IMG/VR virus record: IMGVR_UViG_3300045988_023530
From: a virus
DNA length: 6,233 nucleotides
Reading direction: 5' to 3' (one strand)
Shown in pieces: positions 1,163 through 6,233 of this stretch (the first letter of the stretch is position 1; each line of letters starts with the position of its first letter). A program made the position numbers and the translations under genes. The notes beneath the pieces were generated by a model. The model was not told where the DNA came from, made no database searches, and was given only the letters and a program-made list of their open reading frames with translations.

Positions 1163-3133
1163 TTACATTAAAGGTATCTGTGCTGCGCTCATAACTCGTC
1201 TTGCGATAATTCTCTTTCCGATTTGTACCCAGAAGTCTCGGTTGGTATCCGTGTTCGTTGCGAAGATATACGTATAGTCTTTCGGTGAGATATATGTACT
1301 GGGATTGGTAATTTCTCCAACATCGTTGACGTCATATATCCTGTTCAGGACCATGTAGCTTTCGGTTTCTCCTGCTGCGAAGTCTGCATACGTTCTGTTC
1401 ACGTCCGTCATGTAGTTCAGCCATGCAGGTTGCTTCCCTATTGCCTCATTAAGCCTAGCCCGTCCGTGCATCTGGTTGCTTAACAGGTCTTGGTATCCGA
1501 TTCCATCCAGCTGTGGTTTGTGCAGGTCGTCCATTGTGTCTAGCTGCACCATATCCCAGTCGTTACCCTGTGAGTAGTCTACGTTTGGTGTGATGCTTGC
1601 AATACCGATAATATAGCATGGTTCGTTACACTTGATTACGATTTTGCCACCTCTCTTTCCTCGGTTAAAACCACGTCCTGCCAGGCTTCCCAATGGTTCT
1701 TCTACTCCGCTCGCTGTTGATGCCGAGTTTGATACTACTGCTTCAAATTCGATTGTTGTCGACATACCTCCTTCATATACTGGAGTTTCGGCTCTGAAGT
1801 AGTAATCTGTTGTGTATACTGTCTCAATCCAGTCCTTGTAACTGCCTCCGCTGATTGCGATACGGTTCAGCATGTTGTACACTTTTTGTGCCAGGTTCAG
1901 TGCGTCCAGGTTAAGTTTTCCGTCGCTTACGTCTACGTCTGTTACTGCGTTGATTCCATTATCACCGTCTACCCACTCTTTATTGACCCAGTTGTTAAAC
2001 AGGTCTGACTGATATGTTTTTAAACATAAGCCACCCATTTCTGAGTTTACTATGGGGTATATTATCCTGTCTTTGTCAGTTTCTTCGTAATTTTCCGTGA
2101 ACAGTACTCTGTAGATGAAGTTTGATTTCAATTTTTCATCGCTATTTCTTCCGACTACGATTTTTTCACGTCCTTTACTCAGGATGTATTCCCTTAAGTC
2201 GTCGATTTCTGTTAACGGGAATGAGCTTGTGTATGCATTTGTTACTGTTCCCTGTTTAATGTTTTCGGTTGTTCCCTTAAGAGTTACACTTGTCCCTGGA
2301 TCTACTTGTATTGTTCGTGATGTTTTGTAATACTGTCCTGCTTTTGCTTTGATTATTATTTTGTTTTTTTCGACACTTACTTTTTCCCACGCATCGATAT
2401 CGACTATTTTTATGTATATAGGTTCTGAATCTAATGTGAATTTTATTTCTTTTATGTCTTCAAGTTTTATATCTGTTCCTGTAATTGTTACTGTAGTTGG
2501 AGCTGTACAGAAGAAGTCAAATGTATAGGTATTTTTATATACATTTCCCGTAAAATCTTCAGACACAATAGTCGTCGCATTCTGAATCGAGCTGCCACCC
2601 ATTACATAAAACCGTTCTTCCTGCTTATTGGCGTAATAGTTTTTAAAGACGTCATAGTATCCTAGGAATGGAACTATGTTGTATTCTTGTACTTCTGACG
2701 TTGTATACCATGGTTCTACTTTTACTCCTAGATATTCTGCTAATGATGCCTTCCCTTCTTTGTCCCCTTTGTTTCTCACATAGAATTCTGCCTTGGGAAG
2801 CTTTACTTTGCTCATATCCAGTCCGATATTGAGTGTGTTGTTATGCAGCATTGCGTTGTACAATCTGATGGGACACGTAAATACATCTGCCTGGAACTTG
2901 AAGTTTCCGAACAGCGGCCCGATAGTCGGATGTGTCATGATTTGTGTGTCCATATCTATCTCGAATGTGTCTCCTGGTAATCCCAACAGCTTCATGAATG
3001 GTACTAGTGTACCTACTCCCATAGGACTGCGCCAGGCACTTGACAGGTTATGTGTACTTCTTCCGTACTCCCTGAGGGATACCGACATCTTGTTGCTATC
3101 CCCTAGTGTGTTTTTTCCGATGTTTACTTTCAT
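1163..3133 (-). CDS. VP1: Major capsid protein VP1 (F-like), 656 aa
   Basis: The ORF track shows Microviridae capsid signatures throughout: RSTHNLS, GTLVPF, LPGDTF, YYDVFKNYYAN, KTYQSDLFNNW, LAGRGF, EPCYIIGIASITPNVDYSQG, PAWLNYMTDVNRTYADFA and FWVQIGKRIIARRVMS. The length fits the long Alpavirinae-type VP1. Confidence 0.95.
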   Translation of the reverse strand: MKVNIGKNTLGDSNKMSVSLREYGRSTHNLSSAWRSPMGVGTLVPFMKLLGLPGDTFEIDMDTQIMTHPTIGPLFGNFKFQADVFTCPIRLYNAMLHNNTLNIGLDMSKVKLPKAEFYVRNKGDKEGKASLAEYLGVKVEPWYTTSEVQEYNIVPFLGYYDVFKNYYANKQEERFYVMGGSSIQNATTIVSEDFTGNVYKNTYTFDFFCTAPTTVTITGTDIKLEDIKEIKFTLDSEPIYIKIVDIDAWEKVSVEKNKIIIKAKAGQYYKTSRTIQVDPGTSVTLKGTTENIKQGTVTNAYTSSFPLTEIDDLREYILSKGREKIVVGRNSDEKLKSNFIYRVLFTENYEETDKDRIIYPIVNSEMGGLCLKTYQSDLFNNWVNKEWVDGDNGINAVTDVDVSDGKLNLDALNLAQKVYNMLNRIAISGGSYKDWIETVYTTDYYFRAETPVYEGGMSTTIEFEAVVSNSASTASGVEEPLGSLAGRGFNRGKRGGKIVIKCNEPCYIIGIASITPNVDYSQGNDWDMVQLDTMDDLHKPQLDGIGYQDLLSNQMHGRARLNEAIGKQPAWLNYMTDVNRTYADFAAGETESYMVLNRIYDVNDVGEITNPSTYISPKDYTYIFATNTDTNRDFWVQIGKRIIARRVMSAAQIPLM

Positions 3134-3569: not shown

Positions 3570-3718
3570 GATTTTTTGTTCATATCTGTTAAATACTTCC
3601 CTAATTCCTTGTAGCTTCCACAGGTGGTGGTTAGGTTCACCACCTGTCCTGTCATTTCGTTAACGAACTCGATTTCAAATATAATGAATAATTTTACATC
3701 TTGATTTGTTTCTTTCAT
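3533..3718 (-). CDS. Hypothetical protein, 61 aa
   Basis: The ORF is in the track with ATG at 3718..3716 and TGA at 3535..3533. It is co-oriented in the small-ORF block and overlaps the next ORF by 37 nt in another frame. I recognise no family. Confidence 0.4.
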   Translation of the reverse strand: MKETNQDVKLFIIFEIEFVNEMTGQVVNLTTTCGSYKELGKYLTDMNKKSWRMLKVTRKEN

Positions 3719-3739: not shown

Positions 3740-3937
3740 TCAATTATTTCCCAATGCCCACATAACTCTCCAGCTTTTTTCTTTCACTTCAAGCGCAGCG
3801 CCTATGAATATGGTTGGAAATAGTACCTTCATTTGTTTTATTGTATTCATGGCTACAAACTCAGTTTCGAATCTCTCAACTGTTATTCCATCTTTAAAAA
3901 TGATTGTAACTCTGTAGTTTCTTTTTATTTTTTCCAT
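3740..3937 (-). CDS. Hypothetical protein, 65 aa
   Basis: The ORF is in the track. Its ATG at 3937..3935 lies 2 nt after the stop of the upstream 57-aa ORF. I recognise no family. Confidence 0.5.
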   Translation of the reverse strand: MEKIKRNYRVTIIFKDGITVERFETEFVAMNTIKQMKVLFPTIFIGAALEVKEKSWRVMWALGNN

Positions 3938-3939
3938 TG

Positions 3940-4113
3940 TTATCCTACGATTTCGGTTATACTTACCACTTCTATTTGAATCCCGCTTGCTTTACATGCT
4001 TTGCACAGTTTTTCTGCTTCCAGCAAAGCGTGGAGCATCTTCTTCGCTCTTGTTAATCCTTCTAACATTCTTCCGTTGTTTAGATTCTTGTAAGTAATCA
4101 TAAAATTTTTCAT
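3940..4113 (-). CDS. Hypothetical protein, 57 aa (below the ORF-track size cutoff); first ORF after the predicted promoter
   Basis: Hand translation from ATG 4113..4111 to TAA 3942..3940 gives MKNFMITYKNLNNGRMLEGLTRAKKMLHALLEAEKLCKACKASGIQIEVVSITEIVG. It sits about 26 nt downstream of the predicted transcription start. Confidence 0.4.
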   Translation of the reverse strand: MKNFMITYKNLNNGRMLEGLTRAKKMLHALLEAEKLCKACKASGIQIEVVSITEIVG

Positions 4114-4145
4114 AACTGTAATCTTTTATTGGTTTTTCTGTATTA

Positions 4146-4176
4146 CAAATATACGCATTTTTTTCTAAAACACAAA
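4146..4176 (-). promoter_or_regulatory. Bacteroides-type promoter: -33 TTTG (4176..4173), 19-nt spacer, -7 TATATTTG (4153..4146)
   Basis: The minus strand reads TTTG-tgttttagaaaaaaatgcg-TATATTTG. This is an exact match to the Bacteroides consensus TTTG-N19-21-TAnnTTTG. It lies in the only large non-coding AT-rich region, upstream of the co-directional gene string. Confidence 0.55.
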
Positions 4177-4251
4177 ATTTTTGGCATTTCTTTTATTATA
4201 ATCAAATAATATTTTTTCTATTAAAAATAAATCTATATGTATATGATAGCC

Positions 4252-4356
4252 TGTTGAAACTGTTTATAACTATGTTAATTTATTCATTTTCAATCATTTA
4301 TCTTGTTCATAACTTTGTTGATAACTTTTCATTTATTTATTTGTATTGTTCATAAC
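4252..4356. repeat. Iteron array, orientation 1: TGTTnATAAC at 4261-4270, 4304-4313, 4316-4325 and 4347-4356 (degenerate copy at 4252-4260)
   Basis: The copies are tgtttataac, tgttcataac, tgttgataac and tgttcataac. Three of them are followed by ttt. Copies 2 and 3 are 12 nt apart. Confidence 0.7.
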
Positions 4357-4404
4357 TTTCTTCTGTAGTAAAACATTTGTCATTTCCAAATTTTAAGGCA
4401 TTTA

Positions 4405-4469
4405 TTTATCAACAAGTTATTAACAGGTTTATTAACCGATTTTGTTGGGTTATCAACAGGTTATCAACA
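4405..4469. repeat. Iteron array, opposite orientation: GTTATnAACA at 4405, 4416, 4428, 4449 and 4460 (about 11-nt phasing)
   Basis: The copies are tttatcaaca, gttattaaca, tttattaacc, gttatcaaca and gttatcaaca. Each is the reverse complement of the 4252-4356 motif. The core TTATCAACA is one mismatch from the DnaA box TTATCCACA. Confidence 0.7.
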
Positions 4470-4473
4470 CCCA

Positions 4474-4588
4474 CAAGCCGAATACTTGGAGGCTTGCATA
4501 TAGTTGGCAGCATGACCGCCCGAGAGCGTTGTCTCGGGCAGCAAGCTAGCCTTGCGTAGTCATGTTAATAATCGGAGCCGCAGGCTCC
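4474..4588. other. GC-rich structured island 3' of rep: a hairpin (4474-4496), a perfect three-way junction (4511-4564) and a hairpin (4574-4588)
   Basis: The first hairpin is caagcc/ggcttg. The junction has P1 catgac (4511-4516) with gtcatg (4559-4564), P2 gcccgaga (4518-4525) with tctcgggc (4532-4539), and P3 gcaag (4541-4545) with cttgc (4551-4555). The last hairpin is ggagcc-gca-ggctcc. GC by hand count is 72/130 over 4471-4600. Confidence 0.6.
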
Positions 4589-4603
4589 CTACCTTCTGGT
4601 CAC

Positions 4604-5569
4604 TCAAGGATGGCGAAGCTGGCGAAGTTTTCGAGCATTTAGCCTTGCTTGGCGCATTTTTTCCAGCCTTGCCTTGACTTTCTCTCGTTCCCAGTCTTCT
4701 GGGTTATCTCCATATAGAAGCTCGGCTCTTCTTTGGTAATATCTTGTCAGATTCTCCCATTCTTCCAGATTATCCGTGCTTACCTTCTCTCCTGCTATGT
4801 ATCGGTATCCTCTTTCCTGCTTGATTATCCACAGGTTCTCACGCTCTTCTTCGGTGTATAGTTTGTCATGGTAATACTTTGGCAATGGTAGTTCATTTCC
4901 GTCTTCCAGTTTGTAGGTCTCTTTTGTTTCCTTACCTCTGTAACGGTTTCTTTTGGCGTTATAGCTCGTTTCGTATTTGCTTCCTATCCCTGCGCTGCAC
5001 ATTACTTTTCCTCTGAAATCAGGCCATTTCTCGCATATCTTCAGCATGTACTTAGTTACATATGCAATAGTTGTCTGGTTAACATAATCTCCTATGTAGG
5101 TGTATCCGTACCCCCAATGGTTTATTCTTTCTTTCGGACACCATACTATTCCATGTAAGTGTATTCTTCCGTAGTCTTCTCCCTTTTCTGTGACCATCCA
5201 GTGTCTGATGGACTTTCCCGTTTTTTTCCGGATTCTTTCCAGCCATCTTCTCACAGCTACCTTGCACATCTCGTTTTGTTCGGTATAGTTCAGGTTTTCC
5301 TTACTTTTCTTGAACAGCTCCCACGACAGTTTCTGGTAATTTTCTTCGTTGAATGTCAGTGTAATAAATAGTGCGTTAGGATTGTTTTTCAACTCTTCTG
5401 CCAGTCTTATCCTCCAGTTTCTCGCTTTTTCCTTCCGGCATTCGATACATTTTCCGCATTTTGTCGGCACATATCTTAACCTTTCATCATTGCATTCTGG
5501 TACATTTCCTTGATTTTTCTTGGTGTACATGTACTTTTTGTTTAATATATATTTGGTATATAAGCACAT
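4604..5569 (-). CDS. VP4: Replication initiation protein VP4 (HUH rolling-circle endonuclease, phiX174 A-like), 321 aa from ATG 5569
   Basis: The ORF-track frame is 4604..5713. I place the start at ATG 5569..5567 (MCLYTKY...) because microvirus VP4 proteins typically start with MC, and the 48 upstream codons cross the GC-rich structured island. Motifs present are the Cys cluster CGKCIECRKEK, RCR motif 1 FITLTF, the HUH motif IHLHGIVW, and the two-Tyr motif 3 YVTKYMLK (compare phiX174 A YVAKY). Confidence 0.9.
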   Translation of the reverse strand: MCLYTKYILNKKYMYTKKNQGNVPECNDERLRYVPTKCGKCIECRKEKARNWRIRLAEELKNNPNALFITLTFNEENYQKLSWELFKKSKENLNYTEQNEMCKVAVRRWLERIRKKTGKSIRHWMVTEKGEDYGRIHLHGIVWCPKERINHWGYGYTYIGDYVNQTTIAYVTKYMLKICEKWPDFRGKVMCSAGIGSKYETSYNAKRNRYRGKETKETYKLEDGNELPLPKYYHDKLYTEEERENLWIIKQERGYRYIAGEKVSTDNLEEWENLTRYYQRRAELLYGDNPEDWEREKVKARLEKMRQARLNARKLRQLRHP

Positions 5570-5635
5570 AGTTAAAATTGTTTCACGTGGAACATAAATA
5601 AAAAAATAGAACAGCACAATGTATGTAGCATTATG

Positions 5636-5818
5636 GTCTGGCACGCTTGCGTGCCTGGCCTCTGGTGCATACGTTGTACTGTTCTTAGGCGAGCGCCGAT
5701 TGAGCTCCATCAAATAACGAGTCCCGCATGGTGCGTTAGGGATAGGAGGCGAGTATGGCCTTTAGGCCATTTGTCTGAGCCGGATAGCCCGACCCCCTTG
5801 CGGGGTAACGCCCCCTAT
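5636..5818. other. GC-rich structured island between the VP2 stop and the rep start
   Basis: A 10-bp closing helix (5742-5751 with 5809-5818) has one G.T wobble when read on the minus strand. It encloses hairpin atggcc-ttta-ggccat (5755-5770) and hairpin CCCC-GCAA-GGGG (minus strand, 5794-5805). A separate 6-bp hairpin ggcacg-cttg-cgtgcc lies at 5640-5655. GC by hand count is 104/175 over 5641-5815. Confidence 0.55.
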
Positions 5819-6233
5819 AATTTTTCTACAATCATCTTGATAACTTTTCCAAGCAGCCTTGCGTATTCTCCTTGGCCTGTCATCTCTTCCAGCATTTTGC
5901 TGAATGCCTGGTCTTGATCCAGTTCCCAGTCTTCTCTTTCGTATTTTTTTAACATTAGCTTTATTTCCTGAGTCGGCTTGGTCATCTCGTCCAGCTTTCC
6001 TTGTGCGATTAGTCCTATATCATTGCTTAGCTTGTCGAGAATCTTCTTGTCGAATAGCATCTTCTTTTCGTCGTGAGACAGTGCTGCTATGTCTTTTTTG
6101 AAGTTTCCGTAGTACCTTTCTATTACGGAGTCCTCCCATCCATAAGACTTTCCGTTCTCGTACCATACGCTCGATTTGATAACCTTGTTCAAGTCGTCCT
6201 GGAACTGTGCGATTCTGGTCTGTACTTCCTTGT
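5815..6233 (-). CDS. VP2: VP2 DNA pilot / minor capsid protein, C-terminal part (6157-6233 duplicates 1-77; unique part is 6156..5815)
   Basis: It is in the same frame as 726..1. The ORF-track entry 5815..6192 starts at a TTG (caa at 6190-6192), which is an internal Leu codon of the longer wrapped ORF (...QFQDDLNKVIKSSVWYENGKSYGW...). The stop is TAG at 5817..5815. The joined product is 726 + 342 nt, or 355 aa. Confidence 0.8.
   Translation of the reverse strand, partial: KEVQTRIAQFQDDLNKVIKSSVWYENGKSYGWEDSVIERYYGNFKKDIAALSHDEKKMLFDKKILDKLSNDIGLIAQGKLDEMTKPTQEIKLMLKKYEREDWELDQDQAFSKMLEEMTGQGEYARLLGKVIKMIVEKL
6157..6233. repeat. Terminal direct repeat, copy 2 (identical to 1-77)
   Basis: This is the same 77-mer as 1-77. 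The length matches a typical assembler k-mer overlap, so it is most likely redundancy of a circular molecule rather than a biological repeat. Confidence 0.95.

Follow-up and report, generated by a model that had tools for sequence, protein, structure and literature searches.

A folded island between rep and the iterons

The sequence studied here is the whole 6,233-nt stretch of IMG/VR virus record IMGVR_UViG_3300045988_023530 (hereafter the window). Our subject is a GC-rich, folded island that separates the gene of its replication initiator (rep) from the iterons of the presumed plus-strand origin region. The window is the genome of a microvirus. It encodes a major capsid protein of the Phage_F type at 1163-3133, and the best GenBank matches of this protein are uncultured gut or faecal microviruses with at most 51% identity, some of them associated with Parabacteroides. 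The rep gene (4604-5713, minus strand; stop codon 4604-4606 in the list of open reading frames, ORFs) encodes an HUH rolling-circle initiator (Pfam PF23343 REP_ORF2-G2P, E = 7e-11). Every convincing gene of the window lies on the minus strand and, because the packaged strand of Microviridae shares the polarity of the mRNA, we take the minus strand to be the viral single strand. The element is described throughout in this viral sense.

The limits of the island follow from comparison with two relatives that lack it. A clean indel relative to contig L060 defines a minimal island of 127 nt (4469-4595, minus strand), and an independent indel relative to L010 gives alternative limits of 139 nt (4473-4611, minus strand). 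Along the viral strand, the order is rep stop, hairpin H1, iteron-like linker, three-way junction, spacer, hairpin H3 and iteron array. The island begins 10 nt past the rep stop, with no terminator in between. H1 (4574-4588, minus strand; alignment columns 15-29) starts 15 nt beyond the stop and combines a GC-rich stem of 6 bp with a variable loop of 3 nt (GCA/TGC in the window). The conserved AT-rich linker that separates H1 from the junction (4563-4572, plus strand) reads TGTTAATAAT and is an inverted copy of the iteron consensus TGTTRATAAC. The three-way junction itself spans 54 nt (4511-4564, minus strand) and is built from helices P1 (4511-4516/4559-4564), P2 (4518-4525/4532-4539) and P3 (4541-4545/4551-4555), with loops of 6 nt in P2 and 5 nt in P3 and linkers of 1, 1 and 3 nt. 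A conserved single-stranded spacer (4498-4510, minus strand; viral sense CTGCCAACTATRT) leads to H3 (4473-4497, minus strand; columns 106-130), whose stem comprises 6 bp at 4474-4496, or 7 bp if the G.T pair 4473/4497 is counted, and whose 11-nt loop, TCCARGTRTTC, is near-invariant. H3 abuts the first iteron of a direct TGTTRATAAC array (4405-4469, minus strand), which was located by a pattern scan and, in the viral strand, follows the island directly on its 3' side.

The original prediction, made from the letters of the window, had described the junction and the two flanking hairpins as free of mismatches and as lying in a GC-rich island beside an AT-rich region. Its coordinates and pairings proved exact when checked on the sequence, and the GC content is indeed 0.52-0.57 over 4450-4650 versus 0.16-0.24 over 4100-4400. 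It had further tied the fold to a stability beyond that of shuffled sequence, and this was borne out with a z-score of about -5 for the 54-mer. On both strands, the 54-mer adopts the proposed junction as its structure of minimum free energy (-16.7 and -15.8 kcal/mol as DNA; z = -5.1 and -5.2), and none of 200 dinucleotide shuffles reached its stability. For the 139-nt island, z is -4.4 as DNA and -3.2 as RNA. When the genome was scanned in 60-nt sliding windows, with mononucleotide shuffles as controls, the island was the most stable segment of the whole viral-sense strand (-16.0 kcal/mol versus a mean of -3.4, standard deviation 2.5). Elsewhere, a perfect 10-bp hairpin, ACAGGTGGTG ... CACCACCTGT, is present at 3623-3650 on the minus strand within the region of small ORFs; the z-score of its 91-nt context is only -2.6.

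Compensatory changes in the stems and invariance of the loops

Copies of the island were gathered by scanning IMG/VR and public metagenomes with Rep and with sequence patterns, and from the contexts of Rep homologues in ENA and Logan assemblies; all gathered contexts were then screened with a covariance model built from the island. Independent gut metagenomes yielded 24 copies (22 distinct sequences), on contigs that derive from the human gut. Two matches to a degenerate pattern (L058 and L059), on large or unrelated contigs where the fold was absent on reading, and three pattern matches without a covariance-model match (L053, L055 and L056) were taken as chance. The copies are 82-100% identical to that of the window, with a lowest pairwise identity of 76%, and they align nearly without gaps, the sole indel being a 1-nt deletion in one group of variants.

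The original prediction had made conservation with compensatory change among relatives the touchstone of the fold, and the relatives display both. Among the 32 pairs of the five local helices, 13 show compensatory changes on both sides, with 64 doubly changed sequence-by-pair cells over the 22 distinct sequences. Standard pairs fill 99.7% of the cells when a 4-pair extension of H3 is included (36 pairs tested). None of 500 column shuffles reached the observed covariation values, and only 0-2 covarying pairs remained when partners were slid by 1-3 columns. The covarying pairs are spread over all helices (2 of 6 in H1, 3 of 6 in P1, 2 of 5 in P3, 4 of 8 in P2 and 2 of 7 in H3). At pair 69-80 of P2 all four Watson-Crick types occur, and H1 exchanges GGAGCC/GGCTCC for GCGGCC/GGCCGC while remaining 100% paired in the 22 distinct sequences. 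RNAalifold recovers the same helices unprompted.

The unpaired positions behave in the opposite way. Variable columns make up 27 of 64 stem positions versus 14 of 65 unpaired ones (Fisher p = 0.014), and both the TAC of the junction and the GCTAG loop of P3 are invariant across copies. In the spacer, the GCCAACTAT core and the last T are invariant, while L054, L057 and L063 differ in its first two bases and have lost one base. Two further signals in the alignment did not hold. An apparent covariation of P2 loop positions 74 and 76 (CAACGC versus CAGCAC) is broken by a third variant, CAGCGC. A long-range helix GGTAG/CTGCC around H1 and the junction, proposed by single-sequence RNA folding and by RNAalifold, is invariant in the first 19 sequences and broken in L054, L057 and L063.

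The island is a genuine, selectively maintained fold and not a chance cluster of palindromes. With stems that covary and change more often than its unpaired positions, and with a junction and loops of P3 and H3 that are invariant or nearly so, it has the marks of a functional fold whose loops are read sequence-specifically. This pattern suggests that the stems are constrained in shape only and that the loops are recognized by their sequence, as is the case for single-strand origins (sso).

The pairing also bears on the strand that may be active. H1, P1, P2 and P3 are 100% Watson-Crick, with no G.T in 550 cells, and as a consequence these core helices would form equally well in both strands of the DNA, in cruciforms and in RNA transcribed in either direction. 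In eight of the 13 covarying pairs, G-C and A-T replace each other, a change that could pass through a G.T intermediate. A core without wobble pairs fits short DNA hairpins and would be unusual for RNA, an indication that with 22 sequences is only suggestive. H3 has an invariant G.T at its base, and its second pair (107-129) changes from C-G to T.G in six sequences of different backgrounds; its covarying pairs are of the types C-G to G-C and C-G to T-A. A possible extension of H3, rich in G.T (columns 101-105 with 131-135), can pair in the viral sense alone. By contrast, the loop-closing pair 112-124 has two C.A cells, which would be G.T on the opposite strand and would favour that strand. Judged by the wobble pairs of H3, action in the viral sense is weakly favoured.

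On the non-coding strand, two mechanical ORFs, 4377-4559 (60 aa) and 4552-4677 (41 aa), overlap the island; the pattern of compensatory substitution speaks against their being genes. The gene calls of the relatives that were retrieved likewise put small ORFs into the non-coding stretch that separates rep from the next conserved gene, such as L072 1518-1625 and the antisense ORFs L076 1893-2057 and L077 2016-2372. Annotation pipelines call spurious small ORFs over the island, and it stands as a warning to them. Just before the island, the 3' end of rep contains a 9-nt tandem repeat that encodes LRQ (4611-4628; viral sense CTTCGCCAG). Its copy number varies from about two to four among relatives (same region in L002, L007, L008, L013 and L015), and in the L054, L057 and L032 lineages its place is taken by another repeat of 9 nt, GTTCCNGRA.

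Searches for known families and the possibility of an RNA

No catalogued family accounts for the element, in line with the novelty that the original prediction had claimed for it. Rfam, searched with the whole window, gave no match in 4469-4611 at E<=10. With the island alone and permissive filters, its best match reached 15.7 bits versus a gathering score of 40, and the models concerned were unrelated eukaryotic snoRNAs and miRNAs. ARAGORN found no tRNA or tmRNA gene in the window. Among GenBank phage records the island was unmatched, and only the AT-rich intergenic part matched distant microviruses. We did not find in the catalogues or in the literature searched this family, its architecture of hairpin, three-way junction and hairpin, its iteron-bearing linker or its presence/absence polymorphism among near-identical gut microviruses. 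As a structured cis-element beside the origin of a single-stranded DNA (ssDNA) replicon, it is of an already known kind and not conceptually surprising. Having no Rfam match, it makes a clean new entry for catalogues of structured nucleic acids.

Several specific identities were considered and rejected. An intrinsic terminator was discarded, as no terminator-like site was found on the minus strand over 3900-4800 and H1 is followed by GATTATTA, with four T in 8 nt. The ssoA type was set aside because the island has three separate domains and not one long hairpin; ssoA elements carry the conserved motifs RSB and CS-6, the latter in the terminal loop of their hairpin, and the P3 loop region (TAGCTT, TAGCTC or TAGCGC) bears only a partial likeness to that motif, which we take to read TAGCGT/A. 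An origin of the G4 type does not fit the location, since the island follows rep and not the capsid gene. On the plus strand, a terminator-like hairpin with a T-run lies at 4631-4662, inside the 3' coding region of rep on the non-coding strand and downstream of the island in that direction; sites of this type are no commoner than chance (2 found versus 0.9 expected).

The strongest alternative to the reading developed below is that the island acts as RNA. It could be a structured 3' untranslated region (UTR) of the rep mRNA, serving exonuclease protection, weak termination or insulation, or regulation of Rep, or else a processed small RNA. With only 10 nt between the rep stop and the island, and no terminator-like site ahead of it on the minus strand, the island must be transcribed. 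Its RNA fold is stable (-55 kcal/mol, with the z-score of -3.2 given above), H1 is a GC hairpin with a freely varying loop followed by GAUUAUUA, terminator-like in style, and the G.U pairs in the stem and extension of H3 fit only a strand of rep sense. The intergenic hairpins of phiX174 act as stabilizers of mRNA, which we count on the same side. However, no Rfam family emerges even at E<=10, the T-run of H1 is too weak for the terminator scan, and the four main helices show no G.U in 550 cells. The strict conservation of loops, junction and iteron-like linker exceeds the needs of a generic 3' stabilizer, and relatives whose rep ORF runs directly into the iterons do without the island. We regard a function as RNA as a possibility of real weight, albeit an unlikely one.

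Presence, absence and exchange of the island

In all copies, no more than about 50 nt separate the island from the rep stop, and the iteron array follows it directly. This constancy spans genomes whose Rep and capsid proteins are 50-95% identical to those of the window, with one copy per genome, always at the same site. The island is present in relatives with 57-95% identical Rep and absent from others with 59-93%. Many relatives are without any part of it and keep the flanking iterons, namely contigs L009-L012 and L016-L028 and the seven Rep contexts P0001 (93% identical Rep), P0002, P0003, P0010 (GenBank MK012486.1), P0011, P0014 and P0019. The covariance model finds no copy in these island-less relatives.

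Two junctions show how cleanly the island can be missing. In L060, the context of the rep stop is kept and ...GTGACCAG is joined straight to GTTAATAAC, so that the junction reads ...ATCCTTGAGTGACCAG/GTTAATAAC; this corresponds to the loss of window positions 4469-4595 (127 nt). In L010, the junction reads ...AAGCTTCGA/GGGTGTTAATAAC, without the left flank and with GGGTGTT retained on the right, corresponding to the loss of 4473-4611. As L060 and L010 retain different island-proximal remnants, at least two independent losses are the simplest account. Conversely, in L013 the block made of the rep 3' end, the island and the intergenic region is about 85% identical to that of the window, while its Rep is 57% identical; this block therefore recombines between lineages. 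By these comparisons, the island is a discrete unit of the replication-origin region that behaves, in a clade of microviruses from the human gut, as an accessory and self-contained cassette. Its benefit suffices for conservation down to fine detail but does not make it essential.

Such a distribution raises the question of whether the island serves the phage at all. It could be an insertion, selfish or relic, that does nothing for the phage, for instance a miniature mobile element or a recombination scar, and its sharp-ended, discrete indel and its GC content, foreign to the AT-rich surroundings, are what such an insertion would show. Nevertheless, the core pattern has no match in one genome each of 185,579 bacterial and archaeal species, and the metagenome pattern matches that contain the island lie only on microvirus-type contigs, one of which, L047, also bears bacterial genes. 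Together with the single copy at a fixed site in each phage genome, the lack of matches in bacterial genomes also led us to reject a bacterial miniature mobile element (MITE or REP-like). Neither terminal repeats nor a target duplication are seen at the L010 and L060 junctions, and the compensatory evolution and conserved loops show selection. An insertion without function is thus very improbable.

Patchy, recombining distribution with repeated loss, combined with strong purifying selection where the element is present, is also typical of accessory, host-dependent functions. The island might accordingly be a decoy or counter-defence element, as RNA or ssDNA, or another host-interaction module unrelated to replication. 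It has, however, no likeness to catalogued RNA and no copy in bacterial genomes, its fixed position at the origin and its iteron-like linker point to replication, and nothing speaks positively for such a module. We consider this improbable.

The contig L047 (12,617 nt; OGXA01002617.1) deserves separate mention. It joins a partial microvirus, extending from the capsid gene to rep, the island and part of the AT-rich intergenic region, with four small ORFs missing, to bacterial genes: a truncated sodium:solute symporter, EPSP synthase and prephenate dehydrogenase. At the other end, an apparent internal fragment of a glycyl-tRNA synthetase gene was recognized by eye. The contig is either a defective prophage or an assembly chimera, and neither of its junctions lies within the island.

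Related Bacteroidetes microviruses have been proposed to integrate at dif-like sites (PMC3091885), which would make it conceivable that the island is a folded Xer attachment site for integration of the single-stranded genome, as in CTX-phi. This explanation is nearly refuted. No sequence in the whole window matches the 28-bp dif consensus with up to three mismatches, and the helices are too short, the longest having 8 bp versus the 28 bp of an Xer site. The bacterial junctions of L047 fall outside the island, and a Rep-based prophage search of reference genomes found no prophage relatives.

The iterons and the link to the origin

In contrast to the island, the iteron array is kept in all relatives, whether they carry the island or not. 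The window contains 10 iteron-like sites versus 1.08 expected, a number reached in none of 200 shuffles. Four sites lie in one orientation at 4405-4469, four are inverted at 4261-4356, one is inverted within the island and one is an outlier at 5835-5844; all but one thus fall in 4261-4572. The inverted site of the island is the linker 4563-4572, which contains a 9-nt perfect complement to the iteron at 4417-4425 and whose T/C polymorphism matches the variable R position of the iteron. As an inverted iteron, this linker ties the island to whichever protein recognizes the iterons, and thereby to replication. Read on the opposite strand, the iteron core is TTATCAACA, one mismatch away from the DnaA-box consensus TTATCCACA (5 sites versus 1.6 expected, reached in 3 of 200 shuffles). 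The region of the last iteron, AACTTGTTGATAAATAA, resembles the phiX174 origin, which we take to read CAACTTGATATTAATAAC.

These observations could also mean that the island is part of the plus-strand origin architecture. The inverted iteron, together with extrudable palindromes, may help Rep or an iteron-binding protein to bind, bend or terminate, or to hand over the strand for packaging. The island carries the inverted iteron and directly adjoins the array, its Watson-Crick symmetry permits helices on either strand or as cruciforms, and the near-invariant H3 loop, CCAAGTATTCG, lies 12 nt from the first iteron; the recognition of T-shaped hairpins by HUH Rep proteins offers a loose analogy. 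Yet genomes with 88-93% identical Rep and the same iterons lack the island, which excludes an essential nick site. For the same reason, a CRESS- or geminivirus-type nick site in the H3 loop was rejected, relatives with these iterons and Rep proteins having no H3; the loop only partly resembles TAGTATTAC, which we take to be the CRESS nonanucleotide motif. In addition, the island sequence remains about the same at ~57% Rep identity, which points to a partner different from Rep, or at least to an island that has not co-evolved with it. A role in plus-strand origin architecture is therefore quite unlikely.

A putative accessory signal for complementary-strand synthesis

By analogy with known replicons, we tentatively read the island as an accessory sso-like signal that would act on the viral single strand for complementary-strand synthesis and that would be auxiliary or host-adapting rather than essential. 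We give this reading somewhat less than an even chance. A complementary-strand origin was one of two candidate roles named in the original prediction, the other being a structured 3' UTR or ncRNA; its structural claim is fully supported, its functional one in part, since the evidence speaks against the island as the sole or essential minus-strand origin. The position of the island 5' of the iterons, its cassette-like presence and absence, its stems conserved in shape, its conserved loops and its embedded inverted iteron are observed, as are the covarying structure as a whole and the lack of a match to any known family, and they lead us to favour a role in minus-strand priming. From them we infer that the island acts as DNA rather than RNA, on the viral strand, and that it recruits priming machinery. 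That the island is the most stable ssDNA fold of the genome was counted in favour of an sso-like role, and the lack of any G.T in the core, despite the alternation of G-C with A-T, in favour of DNA hairpins, as RNA usually tolerates G.U. Two further properties are shared with sso elements: the island is a non-coding region with extensive, conserved intrastrand pairing, and it is dispensable and exchangeable between replicons, with two different deletion end points.

A possible mechanism can be outlined. The GC-rich helices would fold on the packaged or displaced viral (+) strand and stay free of single-strand-binding protein. The conserved loops and junction bases would then be offered to a host priming activity, be it a primase, a PriA-type primosome or RNA polymerase, so that complementary-strand synthesis could start efficiently. 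The island would in this way be the phage equivalent of a plasmid sso or single-strand initiation (ssi) site, with the three-way junction as a plausible mimic of a branched fork. In a more specific version, the junction would imitate a branched replication intermediate and recruit the PriA or primase of Bacteroidales, or titrate a host sensor, the island being a horizontally exchanged, host-adapting cassette; we consider this version quite doubtful.

Several points weigh against an sso-like role. No sequence similarity links the island to characterized sso, ssi or oric elements. Covariation cannot show whether the viral strand, the complementary strand, a cruciform or an RNA is the active form, the core being strand-symmetric, and the element is necessarily transcribed as part of the rep 3' UTR, so that a role as RNA would come free. 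A primase start of the G4 type (CTG) 3' of P1 was considered and rejected, as it becomes GG with the 1-nt deletion in L054, L057 and L063. The motif TTTG, which we take to be that of Bacteroidetes-type promoters, is absent from the island on direct reading. Many close relatives, one of them with 93% identical Rep, do without the island.

A further point comes from another part of the genome. A multi-hairpin intergenic cluster is present at ~745-845 on the minus strand, between a 108-aa gene that follows the capsid gene and the next gene, with a DNA fold z-score of -5.7. Among its hairpins are one with a perfect stem of 10 bp and a TTCG loop, CATGCGTACC-TTCG-GGTACGCATG, and an invariant one, TCGCTTTT-NNA-AAAAGCGCGAAAA. 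Homologous regions were identified in L003, L006, L008, L011, L023, L026, L032, L046 and L047, and the cluster is conserved clade-wide with compensatory changes, also in the distant, island-less relatives checked (L011, L023 and L026). On these grounds, the 745-845 cluster is more likely than the island to be the essential minus origin, a terminator/promoter block being a candidate alternative role for it. It is this second cluster, together with the success of island-less relatives, that holds down our confidence in an sso-like role of the island. If the 745-845 cluster is indeed the essential minus origin, the island would be a second, auxiliary or host-adapting one. Two such elements in one replicon have precedents. 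The plasmid pMV158 carries two sso elements. In ICEBs1, at least two routes lead to efficient second-strand synthesis (PMC4595007).

Microviruses are among the most abundant phages of the human gut. If the more specific version holds, in which the junction of an exchanged, host-adapting cassette recruits a factor of Bacteroidales or titrates a host sensor, ssDNA phages of that dominant gut phylum would have in the island their first defined single-strand origin or element of host interaction. It would also be a host-range determinant gained and lost between near-identical phages. The natural pairs of genomes with and without the island make its function experimentally tractable.

Comparison with known systems

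The closest functional parallels are the sso elements of rolling-circle plasmids and of integrative and conjugative elements (pBAA1/pTA1060-type, ICEBs1 sso1, ssoA and ssoU), which are likewise non-coding, ~130-230 nt long and form several stem-loops when single-stranded. The stem sequence of an sso can be replaced provided that the structure is kept, and the pBAA1 sso still works with a new primary sequence (PMC4595007). Moreover, sso elements are advantageous though not essential, restrict the range of hosts and have been shuffled from replicon to replicon (PMC5703833; PMC4595007). The sso1 of ICEBs1 has three stem-loops and lies immediately downstream of the relaxase gene (PMC4595007). The island follows rep just as ICEBs1 sso1 follows its HUH relaxase gene, and it shares with sso elements the folding into several stem-loops (three in pBAA1 and ICEBs1 sso1) and the precedence of structure over stem sequence. 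It differs from these elements in having no sequence homology to them and in its compact three-way junction, where ssoA forms one long imperfect hairpin; in addition, its replicon is a phage of gut bacteria and not a Firmicute plasmid.

Within the Microviridae, phiX174 and G4 use hairpin elements that recruit PriA or primase, and closely related phages differ in the element they carry. The G4 oric and the phiX174 PriA site resemble the island in being stable, intergenic hairpin clusters of the viral strand that escape single-strand-binding protein and recruit host priming proteins (the phiX174 hairpin is cited in PMC9865509). However, these elements are located in the F-G intergenic region after the capsid gene, where the present genome has its 745-845 cluster, and the conserved CTG start site of G4 has no counterpart in the island.

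The layout of the island is also comparable to that of the filamentous Ff phages. On the viral strand, their intergenic region presents a gene end, a terminator/packaging hairpin, the minus-origin hairpins B and C and a plus origin with initiator-binding repeats (hairpins A-E), much as rep stop, H1, junction, H3 and iterons succeed one another here. The Ff phages differ in virus family and initiator, and their minus origin mimics a sigma-70 promoter, no promoter-like mimic being evident in the island. Another DNA three-way junction of an ssDNA virus is the T-shaped inverted terminal repeat of adeno-associated virus, located by short repeats bound by an HUH Rep. The T-shaped repeat, however, ends a linear genome, where it is self-priming, and it has a long stem as well as a defined nick site, whereas the junction of the island is internal, has a basal stem of 6 bp and is dispensable for Rep function.

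Finally, the reekeekee- and roodoodooviruses, which are small Microviridae known from metagenomes, have intergenic hairpins by rep with compensatory stem substitutions and conserved loops, tentatively assigned to minus-strand initiation (PMC9865509). Theirs are single or paired simple hairpins in unrelated clades, whereas the island is a three-domain module that combines a junction, an iteron and a presence/absence polymorphism.

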